In this document: positions 28,752 through 52,803 of the stretch, one piece after another
Layout of the letters: the number at the start of each line of letters is the position of its first letter
How positions within the stretch are numbered: position 1 is the first letter of the stretch
Assembly (NCBI GenBank): GCA_963700285.1
Contig: CAVOXA010000010.1
Location: 832,001 to 896,000 of the forward strand
Reading direction: 5' to 3'
Source of the DNA: an uncultured Chloroflexia bacterium
Lineage (GTDB): Bacteria > Chloroflexota > Anaerolineae > JAAYZQ01
Length of the DNA: 64,000 nucleotides
The notes under the pieces: model-generated
Database searches by the model: none
Seen by the model: the letters and a program-made list of their open reading frames with translations, nothing else
Told to the model about the DNA's origin: nothing
Position numbers and translations under genes: made by a program

Positions 28752-28819
28752 GCTATTTGGTCCTCCTTCTGTGAAAGCGCGCTGATGAACCTACAACTTG
28801 ATCAGGCAATAGATGAACA

Positions 28820-30349: not shown

Positions 30350-30390
30350 GGTTTGCCTCACCTGCCATCTACAGACCTCACGGTTGCCTT

Positions 30391-32031: not shown

Positions 32032-32077
32032 GCCATGTCCTCCTTAGCGCGCATTTATGAATACCTCCCAAATGAGG

Positions 32078-33604: not shown

Positions 33605-33607
33605 GGT

Positions 33608-35467: not shown

Positions 35468-35494
35468 CTTACCCTCCTTTGTCTGTCTCCATGT

Positions 35495-36928
35495 CTATCG
35501 CCAGCCCCGCTGTCCGGCCAGCCCCCTGCTGGGAGCAGGGGTAAATTTCTTGTCCGGTTCGCCCACCAGTTGGCCATCCCTGACCCACTTGAGATCACTG
35601 CCATAGAGGCTGCTTGCTAGCAAACCGGCCAAGTCACTGCGCACATCGACATGCGCGGGATCGCCCGCCATGTCGTGCATCTCCTGGGGGTCCGATTCCA
35701 GGTCAAAGAGCTGAAAGCGGTTGCCGACGGGGTACCAGATCAACTTGTACCGGCCAGCGCGGACCATGCGCATGGCGCGGTCGTCCTCCCAATGCTCGCA
35801 GTAGAGGTGGTCGCGTCGATGGGTAGAGAGCAGTGAGTGACCCTCCACCGTCTCGGGGATCGGGATGCCGGCCAGGTCCAGCAGTGTGGGCATGACGTCG
35901 CGCAGGGCGACCAATCGGTCGTCGACTTGGTGGTGACCCATGCGCTCATACCTGGCCGTTGGCATCAGGATCATGGGTACCCGGGACGACCACTCGTGCA
36001 TGGTCGGCTTGGCCCACAGGTTGTGGTGGCCCAGCATATCGCCGTGATCGCTGGTGAACAGAAGGATGGTGTCGTCTAGCAGGCCCTCTTCGCTCAAGGT
36101 ACCGATGAGGAGCCTCATCTGGTGATCGATGTAGGTGCACTGGGCGTAGAAGCCCATACGGGCGAGCTTTGTCCCGGTCGGATCCAGCCGCGAGCGTTTG
36201 TCCATGTGGAGCTTCAGGGCGTAGGGCAGCTGGCAAAAGTCCTTAACCCACTCGCCGATGAAGGGCTCGTCCACACCCAGGTTGCGGTACATGTCCAGAT
36301 ACTCCTGAGGTGGTGTAACCGGCGGATGGGGTGTAACGAAGGAGCAGTACCAAAAACCAGGGCGCGTTGGATCGCGGCGCTGGATGACGCGGCACATCTG
36401 CCGCACCGTCCAATGGGTGGGATGGCAGTATTCCGGAAGGTGCCAGGGGCGCGTGCAGTACTCGTTGTTGCCCATGGCGTGAGTGAGTTCCTGGCCGGCA
36501 TAGCCTTCATCGGCCAGAAACAGCTCATAGTCATCCCTGCCACCGCCCAGATGGTGCCGTCCTTCCTCGTTGAGGATTACGTCATCAAAGCCGATGCGGT
36601 CCCGCTGGGGGTAGATGTGGAGTTTGCCCACGGCAAATGCCTGATAGCCGGCATCGCGGAACACCTGCGGCAGGGTAGGCAGCCCAGGGTCCATCTCCTG
36701 GTACTCGTCAAAAACGCGGTCGCCGTGGGTTTGGGCCCTGGTACCAGTCATGAGCGCCCGTCGCGCCGGGATGCAGGTGGCCGTCGTCGAGTAGGCCTGG
36801 GTATAGAGCGTGCCGTTGTCGGCCAGCCGGTCCAGCGTGGGGGTGAGAATACGTCCGTGGCCCACGGACCCGAGGAGTGGCCCGGGCCAATGGTCCACGC
36901 AGATGAGTAGTACATTCGGTCGCGTCAT
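35495..36928 (-). CDS. Cys-type sulfatase
   Basis: PNVLLICVD, CIPAR (CxPxR), GKLH, PHPP, SDHGDM, QLFDLESDP. Confidence 0.93.
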   Translation of the reverse strand: MTRPNVLLICVDHWPGPLLGSVGHGRILTPTLDRLADNGTLYTQAYSTTATCIPARRALMTGTRAQTHGDRVFDEYQEMDPGLPTLPQVFRDAGYQAFAVGKLHIYPQRDRIGFDDVILNEEGRHHLGGGRDDYELFLADEGYAGQELTHAMGNNEYCTRPWHLPEYCHPTHWTVRQMCRVIQRRDPTRPGFWYCSFVTPHPPVTPPQEYLDMYRNLGVDEPFIGEWVKDFCQLPYALKLHMDKRSRLDPTGTKLARMGFYAQCTYIDHQMRLLIGTLSEEGLLDDTILLFTSDHGDMLGHHNLWAKPTMHEWSSRVPMILMPTARYERMGHHQVDDRLVALRDVMPTLLDLAGIPIPETVEGHSLLSTHRRDHLYCEHWEDDRAMRMVRAGRYKLIWYPVGNRFQLFDLESDPQEMHDMAGDPAHVDVRSDLAGLLASSLYGSDLKWVRDGQLVGEPDKKFTPAPSRGLAGQRGWR

Positions 36929-36969: not shown

Positions 36970-37020
36970 TGTAACCGGTTTCTCGGTTAACAGTTTACCA
37001 CAGGCCTGCCCCCGTGTCAA
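36970..37020 (-). promoter_or_regulatory. Promoter with LacI-type operator (sulfatase-AOR-MlrC-ThDP-aminotransferase operon)
   Basis: Minus strand TTGACA(37020-37015)-N17-TAAACT(36997-36992); operator TGTAACCGGTTTCT at 36970-36983. Confidence 0.75.
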
Positions 37021-38075
37021 GACTGAATAGAGACTGCCTGACCACTCCCGGCTGATTCGTAGGCGGCATCGAGTACCTGCAAAACACGGACGGCATCTGC
37101 GGCCGTATAGATGGGATCTCGAGCCTTCTCGTTGATGCAACGTGCAAAATCACGGAGCAGCAGCTCCCCGGTGCCGCTACCATAGGTGCCGACCGGAGGT
37201 CTGGGGAAATCAAATACTCTGGTAGGAGCAGCGATCCAGTCAGGGTGCTCGCTGTGAACGGTAAAGCGCCGGCCAGACATGGCATCCCAATGGACCCATC
37301 CCTGGGAACCGCGAAGGCCCAGGAATGTCTGCCCCCCGCTGGGCAGCAGATAGCCCACGTGCAGGCTGCCCAGCATGCCATTGCCGAACTTGAGCAGGCA
37401 GGCGGCCGTGTCCTCTACGTCGATCTCGTCCGTTGTCTGCTGCGCCGTCATGGCCATGACTGAGGTTATGGGCTGCCGGGTGACATGCAGCATCAGATCC
37501 AGAAAATGGCATCCCAACCACTGGAGCATGCCTCCGCGGCTCACCGTGTCGCGAAACAGGTAGGATGCGGGATCCCGATGGGCGGGTTCGCCCTCGCGGC
37601 GCCCCACCTTGGAGGTAATCCACTGCATCTCGATGGACCATAGCTGTCCCAGGATGCCATCATCGACCAGTGAGCAGATCTTCTGGATGATGGGATCGAG
37701 GCGCCAGCAGTACCCGGCGTAGAACACCGTGTCCGATTCCAGGGCGCCGGCCACCTCCTCCATCGCCTGCGCCGTCCGGGCCACCGGTTTCTCGGCCATG
37801 ACGTGTATTCCAGCCTTGGCCAGGGTCAGCAGGGCGCCTTCCGCCTCCTGAAGGGGAAGCATGACCAGCGCTGCCTGGATCTGATGGCCGGCCAGCAACT
37901 CGCCAAGATCGCCATAGACGGGGAGCTGGTCAAAAGGAGGGAGCAGGAGCTCCTGTGCCCTTGAGGGACAGGGATCATAGTGTGCGACCGGGGCAAGTTC
38001 GGGTACGGCAAGCAAGGTACTGTACCAGTCCATCGCGTGGGGATGATCTATACCGACCAGGGCTATGGGAATCAT
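37017..38075 (-). CDS. Gfo/Idh/MocA-family oxidoreductase
   Basis: HVMAEKP, GGMLQWLGCHFLD, DVEDTA. Confidence 0.88.
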   Translation of the reverse strand: MIPIALVGIDHPHAMDWYSTLLAVPELAPVAHYDPCPSRAQELLLPPFDQLPVYGDLGELLAGHQIQAALVMLPLQEAEGALLTLAKAGIHVMAEKPVARTAQAMEEVAGALESDTVFYAGYCWRLDPIIQKICSLVDDGILGQLWSIEMQWITSKVGRREGEPAHRDPASYLFRDTVSRGGMLQWLGCHFLDLMLHVTRQPITSVMAMTAQQTTDEIDVEDTAACLLKFGNGMLGSLHVGYLLPSGGQTFLGLRGSQGWVHWDAMSGRRFTVHSEHPDWIAAPTRVFDFPRPPVGTYGSGTGELLLRDFARCINEKARDPIYTAADAVRVLQVLDAAYESAGSGQAVSIQS

Positions 38076-38186
38076 TGTCACGTGGTATCTCCTTTTCGTG
38101 ATGTGCGTCAACTTCCGGTACAACGCGCTTGATCCTGTACGAGATCGCGGGTCGCCACCGGGATCTGCCTATTGAGCAGTGGCCGG

Positions 38187-39230
38187 CTAGGTAGCCAAGG
38201 GCGCCTTACTGCTCGCCGTATGATCTTGCACCGCTGGTGGTGGGGCTGTGGATTCCCCAACCACGAGCATCGGTGCCAGGCGCATCAGGACGTGGGATGG
38301 CGGCGCTTCGCCCCTGATACGCCGCAGCAGGAGGTTGGCAGCCTCCCGCCCGAGTTCATAGACAGGTTGCTGGATAACCGTCAGCGATGGCCTAAAGAGG
38401 GAAAAGCAGGGCATGTCGCCAAAGCTGGCTACAGAGAGATCGTTGGGGACCTGGATCCCCTTGGCCTGGATCGCTCTCAGTGCACCGAGAGCCATGTCGT
38501 TGTTGGTGACAAAGAGCGCGGTCGGACGGGTTTCGGGTTTCAAGATCTCCAGTGCTTTTTGATATCCGCCCTCCTCTGTCAGACCACCGTAGTGAACCAG
38601 ATCGGGATCGAAGGGAATGCCGGCATCCTCCAGCGCCCGCTTGTAGCCCTGAAAACGTTCCTGACTTACGATAGAGTCCCAGAGTCCTACGATCAATCCA
38701 ATGCGCCGGTGCCCCAGCTCGATGATGTGCTCAGTCACCATGCGGCTGCCTGATTCACAATCCAACAGAACCGTGTCGACAGGACACTCTGGTATGGGAC
38801 GCGCAACACATACAAGGGGGATATCCCGCGTCTGCAGGGGCTCGCACAGGTCCATGGATGCCGGGACGAGGATCACGCCGGCTACCCGTTGGGCCAGCAT
38901 GATCTCGGCATAGATCTGCTCTTTCTCAGGATCTTCGTCGGAATTGCACAGCAACAGACCGTAGCGATTCTCATGGGCGGCATCCTCGATGGCCCGGGCC
39001 AACGACGTGAAGAAGGGGTTCCCAATATCGGGCAGAATCAAGCCGATGACCTGCGCGGTCTGTGACCTCATGCCCTGGGCCAGGGCACTGGGCTGGTAGT
39101 CCAGATCCTGCATCGCCTGCTCGACGCGGGTTTGGAGGTGGGGCTTGACCTTGGGGTTGTTGTTGAGCACGCGTGAGACTGTGGCGACCGATACGCCTGC
39201 CTGCCGGGCAACGTCTCGGATTGTGGCCAT
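38187..39230 (-). CDS. LacI-family transcriptional regulator
   Basis: ATIRDVARQAGVSVATVSRVLN HTH, YQPSALAQGM hinge, periplasmic-binding-protein-like core. Confidence 0.96.
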   Translation of the reverse strand: MATIRDVARQAGVSVATVSRVLNNNPKVKPHLQTRVEQAMQDLDYQPSALAQGMRSQTAQVIGLILPDIGNPFFTSLARAIEDAAHENRYGLLLCNSDEDPEKEQIYAEIMLAQRVAGVILVPASMDLCEPLQTRDIPLVCVARPIPECPVDTVLLDCESGSRMVTEHIIELGHRRIGLIVGLWDSIVSQERFQGYKRALEDAGIPFDPDLVHYGGLTEEGGYQKALEILKPETRPTALFVTNNDMALGALRAIQAKGIQVPNDLSVASFGDMPCFSLFRPSLTVIQQPVYELGREAANLLLRRIRGEAPPSHVLMRLAPMLVVGESTAPPPAVQDHTASSKAPLAT

Positions 39231-39545
39231 CTTGCCCTCCTAGCTTGTATACAATTCCAGGATCAAGAATCGTATCCCGAGCGGATTGCGGTTTCTCGAG
39301 ACAGAATGACGGCCTTGACTCAGAGCGCCGGACTTTGGTCCGGCCAGAGCCAGACTGTGTGAAAATTCACTCACCAGCTCCAGGCGAACCACAGTCCGCC
39401 GATCCATGCGCGCAGGTACTGGACTGTGTCCCCAAAGTGCGGGGATCGGGTCCAGCACGAGCGTTTTCGCACGATCTCGAGCGGGACGAGACACGGGCTG
39501 CGCCGCCCTGCGAGCGAACAGCCCCTTGCCCTTCACCCTACGCAG

Positions 39546-40670
39546 TTATAGCTTCTCGGTATCCTTTCGTTGGCCATACTTTTCTACGACCGCCGTGACC
39601 CAGCGCACCCGGTCCAGGTTGCCATCGGTGGGAACGTTGTCGCCGGTGCCCAGGACCAGGTGCCCGTTGATCTGGGCGCAGTCCAGGATGTCCAGGACCT
39701 GGGTCTCATACTCCTCTCGTGATGATTCGGAACGAAAGTAAGTCGAGGCAATGCCGCCCCAGATGGCCATCTTCTGGCCCCAGATCTCTTGGGCCTCCCT
39801 GACAGTTAGGTGCGTCATCGGCGGCGAGGTGAATGCCTCGCCAACGTCAAAGCCCGACTCGAGGATCAGTTCCAGAAGTTGGCGGTTGTCGCCGTCCACG
39901 TGGGTGGATACAATTTTGCCCTCCGCGTGCAACCTGGATACTGCCTTTTCAAAGTAGGGCAGAAAGAACCTGCGATAGATCGGCGGCGGGGTGATGGCCA
40001 TGTCATAGTTGCCATCGAGGGAGGCGATGGCGGCTGCCGATTCGGCTACGACGCTCACCGTCTGGTCCCGGACCCGCTCCAGGGCGTCCAGCAATTGCTG
40101 CAGCAGGTCCGGGTGATCGTGCAACTCGTAGTAGAACTGTTCGTGGCCAACGTATTCGATCATGGCTGAGGATGCCGGACAGTGTCCGGTATGGACCAGA
40201 GCGCAGCCATCGTTGCCGATGAGGTCGAGTTCGGCCTGGAGCTTTTCGTGCTGGGGAATGATCTCGGTGTGCTCCAGCATAAAGAGAACTGGCCCATAGT
40301 CTTGGGGGCCGGAGATCAGGTACTTGGTTCTCAGTCCGCGAACAGCTTGAGCTTCCAGCTCGGCAGTGCGCTTCCAGACCATCGAAGCTGTACCGACCGG
40401 AGTGACGTATTCGACCAGCGTTTCGTGGCCCTTTTGGATCTCCCGCACCTCGACATCGTGCAATACCTGGCGCCAGGCGTCCCGAAAATGGGATTTGATG
40501 CCTATGCCCAGGTCGCGGGTAACGTCATAGATGTGCCAGCCACGGTACTTCTCTGGCAGCCGTCCGTCGCGCTGGGCAGCGTTGAACCACAGCTCCCAGC
40601 GCGGCGCCCAGGGGATGTGGTCCACAGGCTGCCCGCGGATCGTGGATAGGATGCGTTCCCTGTAGTTCAT
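39546..40670 (-). CDS. Uroporphyrinogen decarboxylase/MtaA-CmuA superfamily protein
   Basis: RERILSTIRG..DHIP, TPVG, PPIYRRFFLPY, HVDG, IWGGI; start ATG 40670. Confidence 0.82.
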   Translation of the reverse strand: MNYRERILSTIRGQPVDHIPWAPRWELWFNAAQRDGRLPEKYRGWHIYDVTRDLGIGIKSHFRDAWRQVLHDVEVREIQKGHETLVEYVTPVGTASMVWKRTAELEAQAVRGLRTKYLISGPQDYGPVLFMLEHTEIIPQHEKLQAELDLIGNDGCALVHTGHCPASSAMIEYVGHEQFYYELHDHPDLLQQLLDALERVRDQTVSVVAESAAAIASLDGNYDMAITPPPIYRRFFLPYFEKAVSRLHAEGKIVSTHVDGDNRQLLELILESGFDVGEAFTSPPMTHLTVREAQEIWGQKMAIWGGIASTYFRSESSREEYETQVLDILDCAQINGHLVLGTGDNVPTDGNLDRVRWVTAVVEKYGQRKDTEKL

Positions 40671-40781
40671 TGCGTCTGCCTCTCCTCCGGCAGCTCTCAG
40701 CGGGCCCAAGTTCCCGCGCAGCCGGGAGTTACCAGCAGGTGAGTGCCTATGGCCCAGAAAAGAATGGGGCTCCCGGGCACA

Positions 40782-41552
40782 TCATGCCAGTTGGCGGCGA
40801 TACTCGGCTTCGACGGCCTGCACCTGGGTGCGCATGTGGCTGAGCGCCGACCCAATCGAGAACATCCGCATGCCCATATCATAGTAGAAACGCACTTGCT
40901 GGGCGCTACATACAAGCCCTACCGCCAGATCGTTGTTCCGGGCCGCCTGGCATACGCGGCGGAACAGCTCGTGGCTTTGGTCGCTGGCTACGTCGCCCGG
41001 TATGCCCAGGGTCAGCGATAGGTCCAGCGGGCCGATAAAAAGGACGTCCACGCCCGGAACGGATGCTATCGCGTCTACATTGTTCACCGCTTCCACGGTC
41101 TCGATCTGCAACACCACCATGGTCTCCCGGTTCGAGATCTCGAGCCTCTCAGCGGGGGGCAGGGTAGAAAAATCGAACTGCGACGGGCTGCCCATGCCCC
41201 GGATACCCAGTGGTGGATGCTTGACCCACTGCACCGCCATCTCGGCTTGCTCCCGGTGTTCCACACGGGGGATCATGACGGAAAGCAGGCCGGTGTCCAG
41301 CGAGCGTGCCACCCAGTGATAGTCCAGGTTAGGGATGCGGGCCACGCCGTCGATCCCCAGCAGGTTTGAAACCTGGGCCACGTCCAGCAATCCGCTGATA
41401 TCTGCGGAGCCATGCTCCAGGTCCAGGAACAACCACTCTACGCCGCAGACGGCCAACGTCCGGAGCGTGGGCAGGTCAACAGGAAAGGTCGCTCCCACGC
41501 CAAATACAGGTTCGTCGTTTTTCAATGCTTGCTTGAGCTTGTTATGTAGCAC
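40782..41552 (-). CDS. HpcH/HpaI-family class II pyruvate aldolase
   Basis: LDLEHG, PPLGIRG, LQIET, FIGPLDLS. Confidence 0.92.
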   Translation of the reverse strand: MLHNKLKQALKNDEPVFGVGATFPVDLPTLRTLAVCGVEWLFLDLEHGSADISGLLDVAQVSNLLGIDGVARIPNLDYHWVARSLDTGLLSVMIPRVEHREQAEMAVQWVKHPPLGIRGMGSPSQFDFSTLPPAERLEISNRETMVVLQIETVEAVNNVDAIASVPGVDVLFIGPLDLSLTLGIPGDVASDQSHELFRRVCQAARNNDLAVGLVCSAQQVRFYYDMGMRMFSIGSALSHMRTQVQAVEAEYRRQLA

Positions 41553-41591
41553 CGTACACTCCTTTGTGTTGAAATGAAGATCTTTAAGAAT

Positions 41592-42425
41592 CTAACGGTT
41601 CGACTCGTCCCCACTGATCTGGAAGTCTTTCCCTGGAACCATCGCCCCTACCTTGGACCCCCCTGCCGGGACGACTTGCCTGAACTCTTCCAGGAACTCG
41701 ACCAGACGCTCGATGGCCGCAGAAAGGATGTGCTGGCCCTTTTCGGCTGTGGCCAGGGTGGGGTCGCCGATGACGCCAGAACGGGTCAGCATTTGGAATG
41801 GAGCTTTGAGGCTCACGGGAGACTGGTGCATGTCATACCAGACAAAGCGGCTGCCTTTGAAAGGATAATCGATCTCTTTGACCGCCCGGGACATGTCCAC
41901 ATGCTCCGGGTCCAGGGCGAGCTGGGCTGAGGTCTCCATCTCGCAGGCGTGGGACATACCACCGGGCAGTTCTGACTCGCGGATCTTGTCCAGGACATCA
42001 GCGCAGAGGGACCACCAGTTGGCGGTAGCACAATAGGCATCGGTCTGCTCGATGATGACCATACCCGCCGTGCCCACCATGTTTGAGTTGTAACCATGCC
42101 CATTCAGGATCAGGATCCGCTTGAAACCCGAGCGGGCCAGGCTGCGGCCGATCTCTACCAGGTATCGGGTAAAGGTCTCGGCGCTGACGGATACGGTGCC
42201 GGCAAAAGCCAGGTCCTTTTCATTGTAGCCATAGTTGACAGGAGGCAGCACGACGTCGCCAGTTTGCCCGGCGGCCTCGGCGGCGATGTAGGCAGGGATG
42301 GCAACATCGGTGTCTACGGGCAGGTGGTGGCCATGCTGTTCTACGGTGCCGACGGGCAAGATCGCGATGGCGCCGCGCTCAATGGCTTTTGCCACTTCCT
42401 GTTGTTTCATTTTGGCCAGCAGCAT
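41592..42425 (-). CDS. Creatininase/MftE-family amidohydrolase
   Basis: EQHGHHLPVDTD, NGHGYN, HACEMETS, GVIGDP. Confidence 0.92.
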   Translation of the reverse strand: MLLAKMKQQEVAKAIERGAIAILPVGTVEQHGHHLPVDTDVAIPAYIAAEAAGQTGDVVLPPVNYGYNEKDLAFAGTVSVSAETFTRYLVEIGRSLARSGFKRILILNGHGYNSNMVGTAGMVIIEQTDAYCATANWWSLCADVLDKIRESELPGGMSHACEMETSAQLALDPEHVDMSRAVKEIDYPFKGSRFVWYDMHQSPVSLKAPFQMLTRSGVIGDPTLATAEKGQHILSAAIERLVEFLEEFRQVVPAGGSKVGAMVPGKDFQISGDESNR

Positions 42426-42448
42426 CGCGTGTAACCCTCTCTCTCGTG

Positions 42449-43345
42449 CTAAAGGATACCCAGTTCGGAAAGCCGCACGCGGATCCTTTCTCGCTCTTCA
42501 GGCGTGCTGTCGCGGAGGGGTGGGCGGCTGCGCCCGAAAGTTGTGCCCCTCATGAGTTCGAGAGCCGTCTTGAAGGACATGGCATGGGGCGCCCCCTGGC
42601 AGGCATCTCTGAGCGTGATGGCACGGTCCTGGAGCTTGCGGGCAAGGTTCCAATCCCCGTTCCAGCACGCCTCGCAGAGCTCCACGAGGAGGCCGGGAAA
42701 GACGTTTGCCAGCGAGGCGACGACGCCGTGGCCCCCAACAGCCAGAACCGGTACGGTCAGCTCGTAGCTGCCGGTGAGCACGACGAACTCGGGTGGGGTA
42801 GCTGCCAAGAATTCCTGGACGCGGGCAACCGTCGCACTGGAATCCTTGATCCCGTGCAAGTGGTCATATTCCCGGGACAGGCGCGCGGCCAAACCAGGGG
42901 AGATGGTGTTGCTGGCGCAAGCCGGTATGTTGTAGAGATAGGTTGGAAAGCCCGGTACCGCTTCCAGCACCGTCCGGTAGTGGATCTCCAGGGCAAGCTC
43001 ATCCAGGCGGAAAAAGAAGGGACTGACGACTGCAGCAGCAGCGGCGCCTGCAGCCTGGGCATAGCGGGTGAGTTCGACGGCGTCCCGCGTAGTCAAGGCA
43101 CCGGTGTGCATGATGACGGGGACCCTGCCCCCGGCTTCCTCCACGCAAATGTCTGTGACCCGCTTTCGCTCGTCGACGGAAAGGAGGATGCCCTCGCCCA
43201 AAGTGCCCAGCGGAAAGAGTCCGTGCACGCCGTTGTCTATCAGGAAGCCAAGTTGGGCCCGAAACTGCTCTTCGGCGACACGGCCATCGGGTCCAAAAGG
43301 AGTCAATACTGGGACGACGATGCCTTTCAAGCGCTCAAGGTTCAT
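42449..43345 (-). CDS. DHDPS/NAL-family class I aldolase or dehydratase
   Basis: TPF, GTLGEG, YLYNIP, GIKDSS; start ATG 43345. Confidence 0.92.
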   Translation of the reverse strand: MNLERLKGIVVPVLTPFGPDGRVAEEQFRAQLGFLIDNGVHGLFPLGTLGEGILLSVDERKRVTDICVEEAGGRVPVIMHTGALTTRDAVELTRYAQAAGAAAAAVVSPFFFRLDELALEIHYRTVLEAVPGFPTYLYNIPACASNTISPGLAARLSREYDHLHGIKDSSATVARVQEFLAATPPEFVVLTGSYELTVPVLAVGGHGVVASLANVFPGLLVELCEACWNGDWNLARKLQDRAITLRDACQGAPHAMSFKTALELMRGTTFGRSRPPLRDSTPEERERIRVRLSELGIL

Positions 43346-43419
43346 GGGAATCCCCCAAGGAAACCAGCTTTCAATACCTTCAGAAGCGATACCACGCATG
43401 GTGCCAGCCCTTGGTACGT

Positions 43420-43448
43420 ATTGTAACCGTTTTCACGGGAACTGTCAA
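43420..43448 (-). promoter_or_regulatory. Promoter with overlapping LacI-type operator (DHDPS-creatininase-HpcH-UroD operon)
   Basis: Minus strand TTGACA-N17-TACAAT; operator TGTAACCGTTTTCA at 43422-43435 overlaps the -10. Confidence 0.8.
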
Positions 43449-43594
43449 GATTTTTGGTTGCCGCTGATGCCTCTGATTGCCAAACGATAGAACTCACCTG
43501 CCTCCGATTTGGCTTTTGACGAGGGGTAACCAGAACCCAGGCTGGTACTAGGTGTGCGCTGATCCACGCCGCAACTGACTGCTTGCGGCGTGGG

Positions 43595-44557
43595 TCAGGC
43601 GGATGCTTTCTCAGCAACTGTGCCCACCAGGGCAAGATAATCTACATCTCTGCCACCTATCTTTATCACACAAGTTCCATTACAGTCATCAGCCTCAAAG
43701 CTGATCTCAAACGGCCATCCTTCGGCCAAGAACTTGTTCGGGGCGCGTCGAATCAGGCGGGTCCATACTTTCAAAAAGATGTTGATACAAAGCTCTCCAG
43801 CCTCAAAACGCACGGCGAAATCCTGGCCGCTACGTCTATCTCTATAAAGCCCAACCAAACGACTTGCTTCAGTTGGTGAGATCGTCCCTTCCGGGATCCG
43901 TGGAATCGACAGATAGTCTAGTACCTGAAGGTTGTAGGTTTCCCAGTCGCCCGCGGGGTTGTCAATCTTGAGCTTTCGGTTGGGAAACCTCTCGAACAGT
44001 TCGTCTGTCAAGGCCACAAACTCTTGCCAGTAGAGCAACATGCCAGCATAACCTTCCCAGCCCCTGTCCTTTGCAAGGGGCGTGGAGATGGCTAATTCGA
44101 TGACAAAGTTACTGAAGCCAGGTCCTCTACGTTCAAAGTTCCGCACCAGCGCCTGCTCCACATCCTCCTGTACCAGATAGACCAAGGTCGGGTTGAGCGG
44201 CTCGCTAAAGGCCTGCAATTCAGCAGCAAATTGCAGAATCTGTGATCTTTCAACATTGTGAGCCAGCAGCATCTCGAGGAGATTGTTGAAGAAACACGCC
44301 TCTACGACACAGACCCTGGCGGTTGACTCAACCTGGTCAACGAAAGCTACCCAATTGACCCGTATCTTGGCCATATAGCTTTCAATGCCGCTATCCATAT
44401 CTACGAGGATTGGGTGAGATATTTCGCCCTCGTGAAGCCAACTGGCAGCGATACCATTATAGTTGAGTTGCCGGGCGAGAAAGTGAGCCATGGTGGATTT
44501 GCCGGAGCCGGTCAGCCCCTCAACAATGATGAGTTTACTCCCTACAGATTCGTTCAT
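43595..44557 (-). CDS. P-loop protein (thymidylate-kinase-like N-terminus)
   Basis: LIIVEGLTGSGKST Walker A. Confidence 0.75.
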   Translation of the reverse strand: MNESVGSKLIIVEGLTGSGKSTMAHFLARQLNYNGIAASWLHEGEISHPILVDMDSGIESYMAKIRVNWVAFVDQVESTARVCVVEACFFNNLLEMLLAHNVERSQILQFAAELQAFSEPLNPTLVYLVQEDVEQALVRNFERRGPGFSNFVIELAISTPLAKDRGWEGYAGMLLYWQEFVALTDELFERFPNRKLKIDNPAGDWETYNLQVLDYLSIPRIPEGTISPTEASRLVGLYRDRRSGQDFAVRFEAGELCINIFLKVWTRLIRRAPNKFLAEGWPFEISFEADDCNGTCVIKIGGRDVDYLALVGTVAEKASA

Positions 44558-44635
44558 CTTTGGTATTCGCCCAGTTCAACCTCTGCCCTATCCTCAGCCA
44601 GCATCTGCCTGGCGGCTGGCATAACCTTCTGCTCG

Positions 44636-45130
44636 TTATGTCTCAAGTTGCTTATACATCACAAGGGCATCCACAAATCCAAGCCGTCGATGCCGGAAAG
44701 CCTTCAGCAGGGTACCAACAATTTCAAACCCCTGTCTCTTCCAGAGCCGGACAGCACCCTCGTTTGTGGAAACAACCAGATTGTACTGCATCGCCCGAAA
44801 GCCTCGCGAAACGGCCTCACGCTGCGAATGCTTGCACATTTTGGACGCAATCCCCATGCCCCGGGCTTCTTCTGCAACGATATAGCCACAGTTGCAGACG
44901 TGAGCCCCAAGGGCAGGTTGGTTTGGTTTGATGTAGTAGGTGCCAAGAACTTTGTTGTTTCCATCCACAGCCACAAAGGTTGCAGAAGGCATCTCAACCC
45001 AAGCCTGGTGTGCCTCCTTCTCGGTGATATCCGGTGAAAAAGGGTAGGTCTCACCAGCCCGGAATACAGGTCTGATGACTTGCCACGTGACCGTCCAATC
45101 CTTCGGTTCAAATGGTCGAATCTCGATCAT
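44636..45130 (-). CDS. GNAT-family N-acetyltransferase
   Basis: HVCNCGY, ARGMGIA motif A, MQYNLVVSTN..AVRLW..GF. Confidence 0.9.
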   Translation of the reverse strand: MIEIRPFEPKDWTVTWQVIRPVFRAGETYPFSPDITEKEAHQAWVEMPSATFVAVDGNNKVLGTYYIKPNQPALGAHVCNCGYIVAEEARGMGIASKMCKHSQREAVSRGFRAMQYNLVVSTNEGAVRLWKRQGFEIVGTLLKAFRHRRLGFVDALVMYKQLET

Positions 45131-45401
45131 GTGTAGCTCCGTGAGACATTTCGGGTGCGGATTCATGTGGCGCCAAGCCGCCAGTTGGTCCAGAGTTGAA
45201 CCACGCCGTGTAGATTGTAGCCGTTATTGGAGTTTCATGCAAGTGCTTGCTGGGGGAGCCGCGCCTGTCGAGGGGCTGTCAGGTACTACTTGAGCCGGTG
45301 CACAGCTACGCCAGTGGCACGAACAGCCGCAGCACAGCCCCTCTGTTGGCAATCTTCTGTGAGGGCCAGGGTCATAATGGTCCAAAACCAAGTGGCTGCC
45401 T

Positions 45402-45430
45402 TTGACGAGAAAACGTTTTCATGGTATCCT
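45402..45430 (+). promoter_or_regulatory. Promoter with LacI-type operator in the spacer (Ldh_2-UroD-AKR operon)
   Basis: TTGACG-N17-TATCCT; perfect palindrome GAAAACGTTTTC at 45409-45420. Confidence 0.75.
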
Positions 45431-45499
45431 GGTCTCCAGCAATGGTTCTGGCCGGGCAAGTCACGGTGTAACTACCACATTCTACCCAAGCGAGGTGCT

Positions 45500-46540
45500 G
45501 TGTTGCCCGTTATCGGGGTTCCCAAGCTCCATGATCTGTCCTTCAAGTTCCTGAGGAAAGCGGGCGCTCCCCCCGCCGTTGCGGAACGCGTTGCCCAAGC
45601 GCTGGTGCAAAGCAGCCTCAAGGGGGTCGATTCCCACGGCGTAATGCGACTCCCGCAGTATCTTGAGCATGTCGAGGAAGGTCTCGTCATCCCCGATGCA
45701 CTGCCGGTGCTCGTCCGCGAAACGGCATGTACGGCGGTTGTTGATGGCCAGCGGGGCTTTGGCCACGTGGCGGCCGAGTTTTCCACGCGGATTGCGCTGG
45801 AGAAGGCACGGGTGCACGACCTGGCGGCGGTAACGCTGCATAATACGCGGCACATCGGGCGCGTCGGCGAGTATGTGGAGATGGCCACCGATGCCGGGTT
45901 CATCGGCTTTGTCTTTTGCAGCGCTCTCTCGCAAGTGGCGCCCCATGGAGGGCGGGACAGAATACTGGGTACCAACCCCGTCGCCATCGGCATCCCCTCC
46001 GATGGTGAGTTCCCCTTTGTACTGGATTTCGCCACGTCCGTGCTCTCGGAGGGCAAAGTGCGGGTGGCCAGGGACAAGGGCATTGAGCTGCAACCCGGCG
46101 CTATTCTCGATGCCCGAGGCCAGCCGTCCATCAGGCCCGAGGATCTCTACGAGGGCGGTGCCTTGCTCCCGCTGGGAACCTACAAGGGCTACGGGCTGGG
46201 CCTGGCTGTGCAGATCCTCGGCTCCTTGCTGGCCCAGGGCGGGACGGCACTGATCAACCAGCCGACGGTGGGCAATGGCGCGCTGTTTATCGTACTGAAT
46301 CCAGGGTCCTTCTGCGATGCAGCGGATCTGCGCGCGCAGACGGAGGAGTTGTGTGACGCGGTCAAAAGTTCGTCCCTTTGCGATGGTTTCGACGAGATCC
46401 TGATACCTGGTGAGCCGGAGTATCGGGCCGAGCGCCAGCGAGGACAGGATGGGATTCCGATTGCAGAGGCTACCTGGCAGCGCTGGCGAGAGGCTGGCTT
46501 CAGCATAGGCATGGAGCCGGCTGACTTTGAGATAGACTAG
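45500..46540 (+). CDS. Ldh_2-family (type 2 malate/lactate, ComC/AllD/DpkA-like) oxidoreductase
   Basis: GVDSHG, DGQRGFG, HIGR, GTNP, DFATS, YKGYGL, IPGE. Confidence 0.9.
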   Translation: MLPVIGVPKLHDLSFKFLRKAGAPPAVAERVAQALVQSSLKGVDSHGVMRLPQYLEHVEEGLVIPDALPVLVRETACTAVVDGQRGFGHVAAEFSTRIALEKARVHDLAAVTLHNTRHIGRVGEYVEMATDAGFIGFVFCSALSQVAPHGGRDRILGTNPVAIGIPSDGEFPFVLDFATSVLSEGKVRVARDKGIELQPGAILDARGQPSIRPEDLYEGGALLPLGTYKGYGLGLAVQILGSLLAQGGTALINQPTVGNGALFIVLNPGSFCDAADLRAQTEELCDAVKSSSLCDGFDEILIPGEPEYRAERQRGQDGIPIAEATWQRWREAGFSIGMEPADFEID

Positions 46541-46598
46541 CAGCGTGGGAATCTGATGATCCCAGATTCTGCCGGCTGAGGGGAAAGGGCGCCAGGAC

Positions 46599-47684
46599 GT
46601 GCATTCTCGTGAAAGGCTGCGACGGGCCTACTATCTGGAAGAGATGGACCGGCCTGCGGTGTATAGTCGCACGTCCAGTGTTCCGTGGGATGACTCAAGT
46701 TATGACAAATTAGGGGCATTCCTGGCCGCTGAGTGTGATCAGAAGGCGCACTGGGATGGCCGGGCGTTCGAAACAGCCTACCTGGTTAGCCACGCGGTCG
46801 AACCTTATTCCGAGGATTTCGAGCGGCAGATCACCATCCTACACGCACCCGCGGGCGATCTTTTGGCTTCGAAACGGGTTGGGCTCAAGTACCAGCCAGG
46901 GCTCCAGGAGACCTTTTTTATCAAAACACGGGAGGACGCCGCAAAGTACCTTTCGCTTCCCCTACCCCAACGGGTTGGGGATGTAGGTTCCTTCTTTGCC
47001 GTTGACCAGCAGGTTGGCGAGCGAGGGATCACCGACGTGTCCCTGGGTTTTAACCCCGCCGGCTTTGTCGCAGAACTCTGCGGTTCGGAAACCTTTGCCC
47101 TCATGTCCGTGACGGACCGTGACGTGCTCCATGCGTTGTGCCAGCGGCAGATGGAGATCATGCTGGAAACGGCCAAGTTTCTACTGGGTCAGGGGGTAGG
47201 CCCCTATTTTTCGATGGCGGGGGAGGAGTACCTCGTGCCACCTCTGCACGGCCCGACCGACTTTGGCGATTTTAACGTGAGGTACGACAAACCGATCGTT
47301 GATCTGATCCACGATGCTGGAGGAAGGGTACACATCCACTGCCACGGCTCGGTCAAAAGGGTTATGGCGGGCTTTCTCGAAATGGGGGTTGACGTACTGC
47401 ATCCTTTTGAGGCGCCGCCGATGGGCGACATCACACCGGCGGAGGCGAAAGAGGTGATACGGGGCAGGATGTGCTATGAGGGCAACATCCAGATCCATCA
47501 TATGTACGAGCATAGCCCGGAGCAAGTGCGCGAAGAGACCATCGCACTCATCGATGATGTTTTTGACGATGGACTGGGCCTCATTGTCTGTCCAACGGCG
47601 TCGCCCTACATCCCCGGCGAAGGGGAAGTATGTTTGGATCGGTTTAGCGCCATGATCGCAGCGGTCCGCGATTGGCAAGGATAG
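46599..47684 (+). CDS. Uroporphyrinogen decarboxylase/MtaA-CmuA superfamily protein
   Basis: SRERL..DRP, IHCHG, HPFEAPPMGDIT, EGNI. Confidence 0.8.
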   Translation: MHSRERLRRAYYLEEMDRPAVYSRTSSVPWDDSSYDKLGAFLAAECDQKAHWDGRAFETAYLVSHAVEPYSEDFERQITILHAPAGDLLASKRVGLKYQPGLQETFFIKTREDAAKYLSLPLPQRVGDVGSFFAVDQQVGERGITDVSLGFNPAGFVAELCGSETFALMSVTDRDVLHALCQRQMEIMLETAKFLLGQGVGPYFSMAGEEYLVPPLHGPTDFGDFNVRYDKPIVDLIHDAGGRVHIHCHGSVKRVMAGFLEMGVDVLHPFEAPPMGDITPAEAKEVIRGRMCYEGNIQIHHMYEHSPEQVREETIALIDDVFDDGLGLIVCPTASPYIPGEGEVCLDRFSAMIAAVRDWQG

Positions 47685-47775
47685 GGTCGGTTTTTGCACG
47701 GCGCAAACAGGAGCGTTTTCGACCGACGAAAACAGCGGTTGCTTCGACCGAAAATAGGACGTTCTGGAGGCGAAA

Positions 47776-48744
47776 ATGAAAAAGGTAGCTTTTGGCAAGA
47801 CCGGCGAAGAACTATCGGAGATGTGTCTGGGTACCATGATGTTCGGCGAGCGATGCGACCAGGCCGAATCAGATCGGATTCTGTCTGCGGCGTTGGAAGC
47901 CGGCGTCAACTTTGTGGACACAGCCTCGCTCTACGCGGGTGGGGTGACGGAGGAGATCCTCGGACACATACTAAAAGGGCGCCGGGACAGAGTCTTTCTG
48001 GCCAGCAAAGTCCGCCTTGATATGGCGAGCGTCGTAGAGAGCATCGAAGGTAGCCTGAGACGCCTGCAGACAGACTGCTTGGACCTGTACATGATCCATG
48101 CCCCCATGCGCGGCATGGATCCGGTCAAGATCATGAGGGACCTGGACCAGGTGGTACGGGAGGGCAAGGCTCGCTTTGTGGGCTGCTCCAACTATCCGGC
48201 CTGGTTGGTGACCCACAGCAACTGCATCGCCCAGCAGCAGGGCTGGCCCCAGTTTGTCTGCAACCAGGTCCCCTTCAGCCTCATCGAACGCCCGGCTGAC
48301 ATCGAGATCTTGCAGCAAGCGTATGTCCAGAACTTGGGGATCATGGCCTACCGCCCCATGTGCATGGGGCTGTTGGCCGGCAAATATAGACCCGGCGAAC
48401 CCCTGCCCGAGGACTCGCGGTCTGCGACTGACAAACGGCCCGCCTGGCTCCTGGGCGAGTTTGCCGACGCCATCTCGGGCCTGCTCCAGATGGCCGAGGA
48501 CATGGGGGTGCAGCCAGCAGATCTGGCGGTTGCCTGGTTGCGGGCCAATCCCGGCATCACCACGCCCATCATCGGGGTGAGCTCGCTGCGCCAGTTGCAG
48601 GCCAACCTCTCCGCCTTTGAGTTTGATTTAACCGATGAGCAATACCAGCAACTGGACGAGATGTTTGCTCTGAGAGACCTTGGTGGGGAGATCACGCCCT
48701 TTTTCCAGCCCCTCCGACGGGACCTGGAGCTGGTCCGGCGCTAG
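47776..48744 (+). CDS. Aldo/keto reductase
   Basis: LGTMMFG, DTASLY, SLRRLQTDCLDLY, GCSN. Confidence 0.93.
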   Translation: MKKVAFGKTGEELSEMCLGTMMFGERCDQAESDRILSAALEAGVNFVDTASLYAGGVTEEILGHILKGRRDRVFLASKVRLDMASVVESIEGSLRRLQTDCLDLYMIHAPMRGMDPVKIMRDLDQVVREGKARFVGCSNYPAWLVTHSNCIAQQQGWPQFVCNQVPFSLIERPADIEILQQAYVQNLGIMAYRPMCMGLLAGKYRPGEPLPEDSRSATDKRPAWLLGEFADAISGLLQMAEDMGVQPADLAVAWLRANPGITTPIIGVSSLRQLQANLSAFEFDLTDEQYQQLDEMFALRDLGGEITPFFQPLRRDLELVRR

Positions 48745-48757
48745 CCAAGGAAGCGGG

Positions 48758-48795
48758 CTCAACCTCCCACAGGTTGCCGTCTGCGGGAGGTTGAG
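48758..48795. terminator. Hairpin between convergent operons
   Basis: CTCAACCTCCCACAG...CTGCGGGAGGTTGAG. Confidence 0.65.
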
Positions 48796-48796
48796 G

Positions 48797-50107
48797 TTAG
48801 CGTATCTCTCTGAACACGTCCTCGATGATGTTCAGGGCCTCGTCAATGTCTTCCACGGTGTGTTGTGAGGAGTAGCCGTGGTGCATGGGGGTCTTGTGGG
48901 CATAGTCGTGCAGATAAAGCCCCCTCTCCACGCAGCCGAGTAGGAACTGGACCTCCATCTCGCGGTCGTTTTTGACCGCCTGCCGGTAGTTGGAGACCGG
49001 TTCTGTGACCCCGAAATAGATGCCAAAACGGGCCCCAACCCCCTGTACCACGCCGGGCACGCCAGTGACCTGGAGCAGTTGGGTCATACCGCTGTACAGC
49101 CGCTCCGCCAACAGGTTAATGTGGTCATAGAAGCCCGGCCTGGCAATCTCTTTCTGGCAGGCCAGCGCGCCCAGGACGGCCGGGATATGCCCGGTATAGG
49201 TGCCGCTGATAACCGTATGCCCCATGGGGTTGAGCACGTTCATGATCTCGGTCCTACCACAGATGGCAGCGATGGCGACCCCACCGCCCAGGGCCTTGGC
49301 CAGGGTGCACATGTCCGGCGTCACGCCATAGTACTCCTGGGCGCCGCCCCGGCACATGCGGTAGCCGGACAATACCTCGTCAAAGATCAGTACGATGCCC
49401 GTTTCGTCACAGATCTGGCGAACCTGGCGCAGAAACTCGGGGTCCGAGGGGACACAACCCTGGTTGTAGGAGATGGGCTCCAGGATGACGGCGGCCAGCT
49501 CATGCCGGTGGGCTTCGATCGCTGACGAAAAGGCGTCGATATCATTGAAGGGTACCACGACGATCAGGTCTGACAAAGCTTCTGGCATGCCGTCGGTATC
49601 GGGCATCGGCGCCACCGTACCATCATCGCGCAGGTCGCCCAGTTCCGTGGAGCAATTGTACCACAAGTAGTCGTGCATGCCGTGGAAATGACCTTCAAAC
49701 TTGAGGATCTTGGGCTTGCCCGTGTAGGCTCGGGCAACGCGGATGGCGCCAAGGGTGGCCTCGGTACCGCTGTTCTGCAGGCGGATCTTTTCCGCGCTGG
49801 GAACGGCATCAAAGATCAGCTCGGCCAACTCGGAGTGGTACTCTGTCTCAGCGTTGGCAATCATCCCGATCTCCAGGGCCTGCTCCAGTGCTGCCCGGAT
49901 GGCAGGGTGATTGTGCCCCAAGAAGGTCGCACCGCTCCCTGTGAAAAAGTCAATGTACTCGTTGCCGTCCACATCCCAGAAACGGGACCCCTGGCCGTGG
50001 GTCAGGTAGAGCGGGCGTTTGAGCAAGGGGTTGTAGCGCCCTCCGGCTACAGCTCCGCCGATGAGGTGTTCCTGGGCTGAAGCGAACAACTGATCCGATT
50101 TTCGCAT
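48797..50107 (-). CDS. Class III PLP aminotransferase, GSA-aminomutase-like (paralog of 29030-30349)
   Basis: NSGTEAT, KFEGHFHG, FDEVLSGYR, TLAKALGGG; start ATG 50107. Confidence 0.9.
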   Translation of the reverse strand: MRKSDQLFASAQEHLIGGAVAGGRYNPLLKRPLYLTHGQGSRFWDVDGNEYIDFFTGSGATFLGHNHPAIRAALEQALEIGMIANAETEYHSELAELIFDAVPSAEKIRLQNSGTEATLGAIRVARAYTGKPKILKFEGHFHGMHDYLWYNCSTELGDLRDDGTVAPMPDTDGMPEALSDLIVVVPFNDIDAFSSAIEAHRHELAAVILEPISYNQGCVPSDPEFLRQVRQICDETGIVLIFDEVLSGYRMCRGGAQEYYGVTPDMCTLAKALGGGVAIAAICGRTEIMNVLNPMGHTVISGTYTGHIPAVLGALACQKEIARPGFYDHINLLAERLYSGMTQLLQVTGVPGVVQGVGARFGIYFGVTEPVSNYRQAVKNDREMEVQFLLGCVERGLYLHDYAHKTPMHHGYSSQHTVEDIDEALNIIEDVFREIR

Positions 50108-50132
50108 TTGTGCTCTCCTTGAAGTGATAGCC

Positions 50133-51338
50133 TTAGCCAGCAGCCGCCACCATGGCCAGCGCACCCTGCGGTATCAGGTTCAAGCGGGGGCCGGATGCCA
50201 GTTCTTCCAGGACTGACAGCGCTTCTCCCAGGTCGCGGAACAGCAGGCTGCCGGGCGGCATCAAATAGTCCACCTCTTTGTCCCGCAGGTTGGGCGAGTA
50301 GACGATCAACCTGCGCGAGTCCAGGCTCTTTTCCATGGCCCGAGCGTGCAGATCCTCATAGTAGCCGCCCCGGCTGCCGATGTAGTGGTGGCCGGCGCCC
50401 TCGGGACAGGCCGCTACGAGCAGGATAGGGCCACCGGGCACGACGCTCATGGTCCCCGTGCCGGCCAGGATAGCCTTGCCGGCCTGGATAAAGTCGCACT
50501 CTACGGGAGAGGCGCCGATGACGGCCGCGTCGGCCAGAGGGGGCGCTGCGACCTGATAGACTTCCCGGGCAAAAGGCACTGCCCGGCGGTGGGTCAGGCT
50601 GTAGTCCCCGGCGAACAGGCCCACGATCTCACACCTTTCGTTGATGACCGAGTCCACGACAAAGTCCAGACCGCACATCCCGGCAATGTCCTCGATGTCC
50701 GCCCGGTAGTCGCCCACCTCCTCCGAGTCCGCGGCCCCGCGGGGGCGCACCGAATGGTGGTAGGTGACGGTCTTGGCCCCGCAGACACCAGGCATGAGGG
50801 TCTTGGCCCCACCGCTAAAGCCAGCGTGGGTGTGAGGGATGACGCTGCCGATGGTGACCTTGATTTCAGAGCGGTTGACGAGGCTGTTGAGATAGACAGG
50901 TGTGCCAAGCTCACTGATACCCAAAAAGTCAAGCTGGTCGTAAAAGTTGTGGTTGTAGGTCTCAAAGCGATCGACGACCTCGGTGCCCAACTTGGCACAG
51001 AAGTCGTGGCCGAATTGGGGACGGTGCGCGGCGATGGCGGAAAAGAACCGGATCTCCCCCTCAGCGATGCCTGCCTCCAGCAGTTCATCCACAACCAGGG
51101 GGGTGACCAAGTGCGTTGGCGTGGGGCGCGTGGCGTCTTCGACGATGACGGCGGCGCTCCTTTTGCCGCGGGCCAAGTCTCTCAGCCGCGGTGTGCCGTG
51201 CGGCGAACGGAAGGCTGCCACCCGCTGCTCGGGCGTTAGAGCGGGGGCGCCCTGAATGGAACACTCGTGGACGCGCCAGGCATCGGATAGCGGTAGCGCC
51301 AACTGGCCATCAGCGTAAGGTATGGATAACGTGGGCAT
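50133..51338 (-). CDS. LarA-family nickel-pincer-dependent racemase/epimerase
   Basis: EDATRPTP, AAHR, PHTHAGFSGGAK, ACPEG. Confidence 0.88.
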   Translation of the reverse strand: MPTLSIPYADGQLALPLSDAWRVHECSIQGAPALTPEQRVAAFRSPHGTPRLRDLARGKRSAAVIVEDATRPTPTHLVTPLVVDELLEAGIAEGEIRFFSAIAAHRPQFGHDFCAKLGTEVVDRFETYNHNFYDQLDFLGISELGTPVYLNSLVNRSEIKVTIGSVIPHTHAGFSGGAKTLMPGVCGAKTVTYHHSVRPRGAADSEEVGDYRADIEDIAGMCGLDFVVDSVINERCEIVGLFAGDYSLTHRRAVPFAREVYQVAAPPLADAAVIGASPVECDFIQAGKAILAGTGTMSVVPGGPILLVAACPEGAGHHYIGSRGGYYEDLHARAMEKSLDSRRLIVYSPNLRDKEVDYLMPPGSLLFRDLGEALSVLEELASGPRLNLIPQGALAMVAAAG

Positions 51339-51401
51339 GGGTTCATTCCTTCATCTGTATCGCACAACGCATTGGCAGGGCTGTAGATTCGGATACCCCG
51401 G

Positions 51402-52733
51402 CTAGGTTGGCAGCTCCCAGCCGCGCGGACCGGTGCTGCTGGCCAGCGCGCTGTCGAGGACGATCTGTCCCTGGTTCGCGACGAGCTTGCCGTCGCGAAA
51501 GACCATGGCCACCTTCCGCAGGGAGTGGATATCGGCCAGGGGATCTCCATCCAAGAGGATCAGATCGGCGCGTAGCCCCTCTTTGACCGCGCCGATCTCT
51601 CTGTCCAGGCGCAGGGCCTGAGCTGCCCGCTCTGTGACCATGCTGATAGCCTCCAGCGGCGTGAACTCTGCCCAGCGTACCATGATCTCTATGGCGCGGG
51701 CCATCTCCTCAAAGCCAGGCCAGAGGTCAGTACCAGGCCAGGGACCAAAGGCCGCGTCTGTGCCCAGGAACAGGCTGACCCCCTGCTCTCGCATGTAGTG
51801 TAGGAACGGCCAACGTACCTGGAGCATCTTTAGCCACCATTCCTCTTCGGCAGAGCGCCCTTGGCCATGCTCATCTGGGAATAGGTAGGGCCGGGGGATG
51901 ATGGCGTGGTCGACGCGAACATCGTTGGCCACCATGAATTCAACCGCCTTTTTGTCAGGCACGGTCGATCTGGCATCACGGCCGATCCAGGAACAGTGTT
52001 CGATGGTATCCACTCCCACCTCGGCGGCGAGCCGAATGCTGTCGGTGGAGATGGCGTGCACGGCCACCTGCAAACCCAGGCGGTGGGCGTCATCGACGGC
52101 GGCGTCCAACTCCTGGGCCGTGTATTGGGATCGGGAAATGTTTGTTCCTGGCGTCGTGGTTCCACCGCTGAGGATAATCTTGATAAAGTCAACGCCTTTG
52201 CTGGCCAGGGTTCGTACGGCTTTGACGATTTCTATGGCGCTGTCCACCCCCCAGTCGGTATAGATGTGCCCGCCGGTGGTTGTGATGGGACGGCCGCTGG
52301 CCAGGATACGCGGCCCGACAAAGTTGCCCGTGTCGATCATGTCGCGCAGAGCCAGTATCGAAAAGTCGTCGGCGCCACAGTCCCGCAGCGTCGTCACCCC
52401 GGCGGCCAGGGCGGTCTGGGCATAGTGGCCAGCGCGTACCAACTGGCGTTCCAATCCCTGGGCTGAGACCAGGTGCTGCCCGACTGAGCGAGGGGCATAG
52501 AGCAGTTTGTCCCAAGCGAGGTGTACGTGGCTGTCGATCAGCCCGGGCATCAGCGTCAAGCCACCGGCTTGCAGGCTGGGGATCCCATGGGGAACGGATA
52601 TTTGGTCCGATGGTCCGGCCGCCGCGATCCGGCCGGACAGATCCACGAGAACGGTGCCGGAAGGGATAGGTTTGGAACCCGTGCCATCCAATAGCTGGGC
52701 GCCTGTAATGGCAAGCTTGAGGGTCGTCTCCAT
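51402..52733 (-). CDS. Metal-dependent amidohydrolase (Xaa-Pro dipeptidase-like)
   Basis: PGLIDSHVH, GVTTLRD, VHA, TIEH, GTDA, GLRADLILLDGDP. Confidence 0.92.
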   Translation of the reverse strand: METTLKLAITGAQLLDGTGSKPIPSGTVLVDLSGRIAAAGPSDQISVPHGIPSLQAGGLTLMPGLIDSHVHLAWDKLLYAPRSVGQHLVSAQGLERQLVRAGHYAQTALAAGVTTLRDCGADDFSILALRDMIDTGNFVGPRILASGRPITTTGGHIYTDWGVDSAIEIVKAVRTLASKGVDFIKIILSGGTTTPGTNISRSQYTAQELDAAVDDAHRLGLQVAVHAISTDSIRLAAEVGVDTIEHCSWIGRDARSTVPDKKAVEFMVANDVRVDHAIIPRPYLFPDEHGQGRSAEEEWWLKMLQVRWPFLHYMREQGVSLFLGTDAAFGPWPGTDLWPGFEEMARAIEIMVRWAEFTPLEAISMVTERAAQALRLDREIGAVKEGLRADLILLDGDPLADIHSLRKVAMVFRDGKLVANQGQIVLDSALASSTGPRGWELPT

Positions 52734-52760
52734 GTGTCTCCCCGCTTTGAGGCAATGGTC

Positions 52761-52803
52761 TGTAACCGTTTACAATTGTACTTGTTACCCTGTCTGGTGT
52801 CAA
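52761..52803 (-). promoter_or_regulatory. Promoter with LacI-type operator (amidohydrolase-LarA-aminotransferase operon)
   Basis: Minus strand TTGACA-N17-TACAAT followed directly by TGTAAACGGTTACA (52774-52761). Confidence 0.8.

Follow-up and report, generated by a model that had tools for sequence, protein, structure and literature searches.

The locus and its four palindromes

The window, by which we mean the whole 64,000-nucleotide (nt) stretch of DNA analysed, belongs to a host genome of 7.05 Mb that is 89% complete (G000). It contains a cluster of enzyme genes in four units, each preceded by a promoter that carries a 14-mer palindrome, and unit 2 includes the gene of a LacI-family regulator, P0001 (Table 1). 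This protein combines a LacI helix-turn-helix (PF00356, 73 bits) with a periplasmic-binding-protein-like sensor (PF13377/PF00532). Gene families were assigned by Pfam and NCBIfam to the products of a simple gene caller; co-transcription within the units is presumed, and the transcription start sites are predicted.

An earlier note on this DNA had placed the palindromes at 36970, 43422, 45408 and 52761, and a check against the window sequence found all four to be exact. Its statement that they overlap or sit just downstream of TTGAC(A/G)-N17 promoters also holds at 4/4 sites, each of which overlaps or directly follows a TTGAC(A/G)-N17-TAnnnT promoter; conversely, all four TTGACN-N17-TANNNT promoter-like sites between 26.6 and 52.9 kb carry an operator. 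The description of these as operon-head promoters stands in that all four precede gene units. It does not stand for promoter 1, which is internal, occupying an 88-bp gap between two co-directional units, with a -35 that overlaps the tail of the preceding gene.

At up to 1 mismatch to the loose consensus TGWAANCGNTTWCA, which is that of the earlier note, the window holds 4 matches against 0.15 expected, and 4 or more occur in 0/100 shuffles; relaxing the limit to 2 mismatches gives 7 matches where 3.0 are expected. This enrichment test is partly circular, since the consensus was drawn from the same four sites, a circularity that the matrix from eight sister-clade sites described below does not share. 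LacI-type repressors block polymerase from promoter-overlapping sites. Given that the four operator positions would obstruct polymerase, repression fits their placement. The sites lie 28-107 bp upstream of called start codons.

Table 1. Gene units, regulator, operators and promoters (window positions unless a contig is named)
Feature	Position	Strand	Description
Unit 1 (site 1)	26637..36928	-	sulfatase, aldehyde:ferredoxin oxidoreductase, MlrC/M81 hydrolase, ThDP enzyme, class III aminotransferase, Gfo/Idh/MocA oxidoreductase, URO-D-family protein
Unit 2 (site 2)	37017..43345	-	DHDPS-family aldolase/lyase, creatininase-family amidohydrolase, HpcH/HpaI aldolase, URO-D-family protein, LacI, Gfo/Idh/MocA oxidoreductase
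P0001	38187..39230	-	LacI-family regulator, 347 amino acids; V15 A16 TVSR, hinge A51/M54; fifth gene of unit 2
Unit 3 (site 3)	45500..48744	+	Ldh_2 dehydrogenase, URO-D-family protein, aldo-keto reductase
Unit 4 (site 4)	48797..52733	-	amidohydrolase, LarA-family nickel-pincer racemase/epimerase, class III aminotransferase
Operator 1 (TGTAACCGGTTTCT)	36970..36983		just downstream of predicted start of unit-1 promoter; 8 nt past -10
Promoter 1	36992..37020	-	TTGACA 37020-37015, 17 nt, TAAACT 36997-36992; TG before -10
Operator 2 (TGTAACCGTTTTCA)	43422..43435		over spacer and -10 of promoter 2
Promoter 2	43420..43448	-	TTGACA 43448-43443, 17 nt, TACAAT 43425-43420
Operator 3 (AGAAAACGTTTTCA)	45408..45421		fills spacer between -35 and -10 of promoter 3
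Promoter 3	45402..45430	+	TTGACG 45402-45407, 17 nt, TATCCT 45425-45430; TG before -10
Operator 4 (TGTAACCGTTTACA)	52761..52774		directly past -10, over predicted start site of promoter 4
Promoter 4	52775..52803	-	TTGACA 52803-52798, 17 nt, TACAAT 52780-52775
Fifth operator	G000:C10:1486354		between two face-to-face consensus promoters
Distal direction A	from C10:1486354		GntR/FCD regulator, family-5 (Dpp-type) binding protein, two permeases, FAD oxidoreductase, URO-D, sulfatase, DHDPS-family, HAD
Distal direction B	from C10:1486354		aldo-keto reductase (AKR), Gfo/Idh/MocA, GT1, heparinase II/III-like, C45 hydrolase
Sixth operator (less certain)	C10:1608701		before MOFRL glycerate 2-kinase, cyclophilin-like protein, glyoxylate-reductase-like 2-hydroxyacid dehydrogenase, HpcH aldolase

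Rarity and conservation of the motif

A refined motif, WGWAAMCGKTTWCW, was written from the four window sites. It has 7 exact matches in G000 against 0.28 expected from an order-4 Markov model; all 7 lie between called genes, 3 of them outside the four defining sites, and 6 of the 684 strong promoter-like sites in the genome carry it. In the congener G001, whose LacI is 92% identical to P0001, the six orthologous operators keep 84/84 bases (14/14 at each of sites 1, 2, 3 and 4), compared with 396/460 in the 40-bp flanks, an ungapped count that indels lower and that is thus an underestimate. Even at 90% flank identity, the chance of 84/84 would still be about 1e-4 with bases treated as independent. 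A metagenomic relative, L041, encodes a LacI 86% identical to P0001 in a unit 2 of identical gene order, and there site 2 is kept 14/14 while its flanks diverge. The window and distal sites are even palindromes with a central CG, the exception being site 1 of L041.

Probable units outside the window

The four window sites had been taken to define the regulon, and this proves too narrow: judging from the motif, the regulon likely takes in one further unit elsewhere in G000 as a minimum, and probably a second. The earlier note had also anticipated that a genome-wide motif scan could reveal the missing transporter. Such a transporter was indeed found, in the block served by the fifth operator, with a family-5 binding protein and two permeases; none of the 14 genes called in this block was seen to encode an ATPase. 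The congener G001 has the distal block directly adjoining the window cluster, at C9:448020|448147, with an extra sulfatase there. Consensus promoter geometry is found at 4/4 sites in the window, and the two promoters flanking the distal site show it as well. The sixth operator, before the glycerate-kinase operon, is kept in G001, and its operon is the less certain member.

Two further matches were not taken up as members. The seventh exact site in G000, C15:50486, is left doubtful, as it lies in a low-GC patch of a region not found in G001 and has no strong promoter. The seventh match in G001 (C8:2029) reads as coding sequence and was treated as chance.

Several other features of the distal block were recorded. 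At G000:C10:1486317-1486395 (L018:12317-12395), where the single operator lies between the two facing promoters, one repressor dimer could silence both. The G000 cluster is split by about 630 kb (window 26637 versus C10:1493216) at a junction of two convergent genes, and is continuous in G001:C9:448020-448147; the split may reflect a rearrangement or a misassembly. A tract of 33 bp at 36970-37002 matches G000:C10:1486336-1486368 (L018:12336-12368) at 32/33 positions, pairing promoter 1 with the rightward distal promoter. It covers the extended -10, a 15-bp imperfect palindrome (GGTWAACWGTTWACC) and the operator, has several changes in L041, and could represent a promoter duplication, a degenerate second LacI site or the site of a second factor. 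Finally, staggered BLAST hits mark a tandem repeat with a period of about 56 bp between the distal sulfatase and DHDPS-family genes (C10:1476134-1476515; L018:2134-2515).

Probable attribution of the sites to P0001

The nearest P0001 homologues outside the genus, at 49-50% identity, are found in G295, G353 and G371. They have the VA-TVSR helix and an MRSQ hinge in common with P0001, and a quick tree of 39 rows places them as its sister clade with an SH-aLRT of 96. Their own lacI genes are immediately preceded by 3, 2 and 3 tandem copies of the motif, respectively, one of them identical to site 2, and these positions account for 1/1, 2/2 and 2/5 of the exact matches in the three genomes. A matrix built from the 8 sister-clade sites alone places the 7 sites of G000 at ranks 1-7 in 7.05 Mb, and its score falls to coding-region background past rank 7-8. 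The tandem copies recur at an exact 15-bp period (L088:17569-17612, L092:11417-11460, L090:8940-8968).

Among the 9 LacI heads of G000, the VA-TVSR head is that of P0001 only. No other was seen among the 11 heads of G001, one of which was mapped, without direct display, to a G000 paralogue of another class; one G001 head has TA with TVSY. Closer orthologues are scarce: 23 of 401 class genomes match the LacI at E<=1e-85, none outside the genus above 50% identity, and the family-5 binding protein matches only G000 and G001 among the same 401 at E<=1e-110. Hence, a deep footprint of the whole cluster is not possible. The named nearest relatives of the LacI, together with a rough protein comparison, place the host probably, though not decisively, in Chloroflexota, class Anaerolineae.

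The protein-DNA recognition code points the same way. In the part of Camas et al. drawn on here (PMC2978694), residues 15 and 16 are linked to operator positions 5 and 4 (NT-5/NT-4), and Table S1, from a machine-read PDF whose columns are uncertain, gives mainly TA with TA/AA mixtures for the VA class and AA for the PA class. The six operators comprise 6 TA and 6 AA half-sites, with a TA half present in 5/6. P0001 thus resembles the VA class of the TVSR group (E. coli GalR/GalS numbering) in V15, A16 and TVSR, and in half-sites TGTAA/TGAAA as tabulated. It differs from what that part of the paper covers in its hinge Met at 54 (Leu in the other G000 LacI heads), in an NT-2 that is only A or C across all 12 half-sites, and in an enzyme cargo unrelated to galactose or ribose use.

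We conclude that P0001 very probably binds the four cluster operators as a dimer and represses the units behind them, as a local LacI regulon. The earlier note had named this LacI as the regulator of all four units; recognition code and sister-clade motif support the attribution, with binding and repression predicted from sequence.

Weighing of alternative binders

A global regulator of the CcpA type could bind the same sites in genome-wide catabolite repression, and two resemblances speak for it. The loose consensus is similar to cre and, at up to 1 mismatch, has 27 sites in 7.05 Mb; the best PDB sequence matches of P0001 are CcpA structures, in keeping with a shared overall fold. However, 16 of these 27 sites lie inside called genes, and only 7 of the 684 strong promoter-like sites carry the loose consensus at that stringency. 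P0001 scores 226.8 on the CcpA model TIGR01481, far below the cut-off of 442.35, and A299, V300 and R303 of CcpA, presumably its HPr contacts, are replaced by R, E and N. Neither HPr (PF00381) nor HPr kinase (PF07475) was found in G000 at its 89% completeness, whereas control genomes were positive. The cre-like, genome-wide distribution that the earlier note had held up against its own reading is likewise not seen, with 7 exact sites versus the tens to hundreds expected of a cre regulon. We therefore regard a CcpA-like regulator as very unlikely.

A LacI paralogue, either one of the PA-class proteins encoded at C14:265918 and C10:1944937 or one missing from the 89% complete assembly, might bind some or all of the sites. 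The PA paralogues, the only ones in G000 with similar sites, do carry these beside their own genes (TGAAAACGATACCA, TGAAATCGTTTTCA), and a PA matrix puts site 3 in 2nd place and the glycerate-kinase site in 12th. The same matrix, in contrast, leaves site 1 at rank 1836, site 2 at 98, site 4 at 1413 and the distal site at 214. Moreover, all six operators are intact in G001, where the PA orthologue is frameshifted near residue 47 (possibly an assembly error) and the 11 heads showed no further one of the PA class. Cross-talk of a paralogue at site 3 is possible and, when partial, compatible with repression by P0001; a paralogue as the actual binder we consider unlikely.

The remaining candidate is the GntR/FCD regulator, as the first gene behind the distal operator: it could be the real binder, or could co-bind through the adjacent 15-bp imperfect palindrome, which occurs exactly twice in the genome, beside site 1 and beside the distal site. 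That element is absent at sites 2-4 and has 2 changes in L041, whereas the 14-bp palindrome recurs upstream of homologous lacI genes elsewhere and, being even with a central CG, has the LacI pattern as set out in the portion of Ravcheev et al. used here (PMC4052901). A role for GntR at these sites is accordingly quite improbable. The palindromes might even be a by-product of AT-rich, duplicated promoter DNA with no regulator involved, given that site 1 and the distal promoter share the 33-bp tract: the two may have a single ancestral copy and do not count as independent. Sites 2, 3 and 4, however, stand at different promoter offsets with unrelated flanks, the motif is confined to 6 of the 684 promoter-like sites, and site 2 outlasts the divergence of its flanks in L041; a by-product is scarcely credible.

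Set against the attribution to P0001 are the PA-matrix ranks of site 3 and the glycerate-kinase site, and the doubtful seventh site, together with the following. Matrices of the TA class, the IA class and other VA-class proteins also place several of the sites in the top 10, so the motif, as judged from these matrices, marks a recognition class and not a clade. For this reason, the attribution leans on no same-class paralogue being missing from the comparison genomes, which are 89-90% complete. The sister-clade loci have a different cargo (CUT1-type ABC, RraA aldolase), and their URO-D proteins barely align; they therefore inform on the DNA motif only, not on the effector. Site 1 in L041 is kept at 13/14, its central C changed to T (AGAAACTGGTTACA), which counts against a uniform function of site 1, and the glycerate-kinase site has no clear consensus promoter. 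Lastly, no operator lies directly upstream of lacI, where the closest resemblance within 400 bp departs from the motif at 4 positions. Before lacI lies a gap of 315 bp in G000, of about 190 bp in G001 and of about 110 bp in L041; lacI is therefore likely transcribed from site 2 as the fifth gene of unit 2, and would thus be autoregulated.

The LacI paralogue gene at G000:C14:265918-268095 (L026:10972-13092), whose G001 orthologue is the frameshifted one, is fused to a URO-D-family domain in one called frame of 707 amino acids. It lies upstream of a sugar ABC transporter and has tandem operators 14 bp apart.

Proposed circuit and pathway

In the circuit that we propose, a P0001 dimer on each 14-bp palindrome, on or just past the polymerase footprint, would block transcription, and the imported substrate or its product would release it. 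P0001 would repress 6-7 units, roughly 33-38 genes, likely including the distal C10:1486354 block and, less certainly, the C10:1608701 operon; the GntR gene under its control would add a second tier. The regulatory logic is likely textbook, that of an ordinary though unusually large local repressor circuit.

In the part of Ravcheev et al. (2014) at our disposal (PMC4052901), about 90% of LacI regulons are local, 93% have at most 20 genes, and the operators are as a rule even palindromes with a central CG, placed close to start codons. The present regulon shares with local LacI sugar regulons the palindrome type, the overlap with promoters, the clustering of the regulator with catabolic and ABC-transport genes, and autoregulation, here probably exerted through the operon promoter. 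It differs in size, with 6-7 units that together hold about 33-38 genes, and in being spread over 2-3 places on the G000 chromosome. Its size comes near the line drawn in that source (at least 7 operons, more than 15 genes), and membership of a single pathway is suggested by the enzyme families. The VA-TVSR head occurs in 0/13 of those Chloroflexi regulator sequences of its supplement that were compared by eye. No description of the P0001 regulon was found in the literature, which is weak evidence given the partial coverage.

As to the substrate, the regulon's enzyme set lets us suggest, tentatively, a sulfated or N-acylated compound of the sugar-acid type, broken down non-phosphorylatively to pyruvate and a C3 aldehyde and then through glycerate to 2-phosphoglycerate. 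According to the source consulted in part (PMC2063504), MOFRL (class II) glycerate kinases end non-phosphorylative Entner-Doudoroff and sugar-acid routes. The likeness lies in the DHDPS- and HpcH-type aldolases, the aldehyde:ferredoxin oxidoreductase and the MOFRL glycerate kinase of the regulon. The differences from the routes of that source are that no enzyme here scores above the NCBIfam cut-off of any specific, characterised activity, and that the extra sulfatases, amidohydrolases, aminotransferases, LarA and URO-D proteins suggest that the upstream substrate is one not yet described. When the binding protein, the DHDPS-family enzyme and MlrC were compared with PDB sequences, nothing hinted at the substrate.

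A bolder and more doubtful possibility is that the genes, about 35 in number, form a complete, undescribed pathway governed by a cascade of two tiers, LacI to GntR. Its substrate, an amino-sugar-acid oligomer in sulfated or N-acylated form, would be imported by the Dpp-type ABC system and stripped by sulfatases, amidohydrolases, aminotransferases and the nickel-pincer epimerase, to end in aldol cleavage, ferredoxin-linked aldehyde oxidation and the glycerate kinase. If so, several orphan URO-D-, MlrC- and LarA-family enzymes would gain a common substrate. The motif in any case joins the enzyme cluster to a transporter 600 kb away, and probably to the glycerate-kinase operon. The bounded gene set may offer a route to the substrate of these orphan enzymes, since two of its proteins bind ligands, one through the LacI sensor domain and the other being the family-5 binding protein.

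Neighbouring genes and further observations

Between sites 2 and 3 lie a kinase-like gene (43595-44557) and a GNAT gene (44636-45166). No promoter faces either; the GNAT gene is mostly deleted in G001, and other DNA stands upstream of site 2 in L041, so neither was counted as a member. Just upstream of lacI, at about 39245 in the window, TTGTATACAA is unique in the genome and was considered as a GntR-type site; it is not kept in G001 or L041 and was set aside.

Directly upstream of promoter 4, a gene of 525 amino acids (52851-54428) is kept in G001 and has no Pfam or NCBIfam match. Just to the left of the cluster, two short frames at 25747-26313, one matching a histidine-kinase ATPase domain, suggest a fragmented kinase gene. 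Elsewhere in the window, an ISL3-family transposase at 58480-59743 is in at least two frames and apparently broken. Short intergenic REP-like repeats occur at 28740-29030, 39280-39330 and 26600-26630, related 11-mers being present 8-45 times genome-wide; in G001 the 28.7-29.0 kb gap is much reduced in length.

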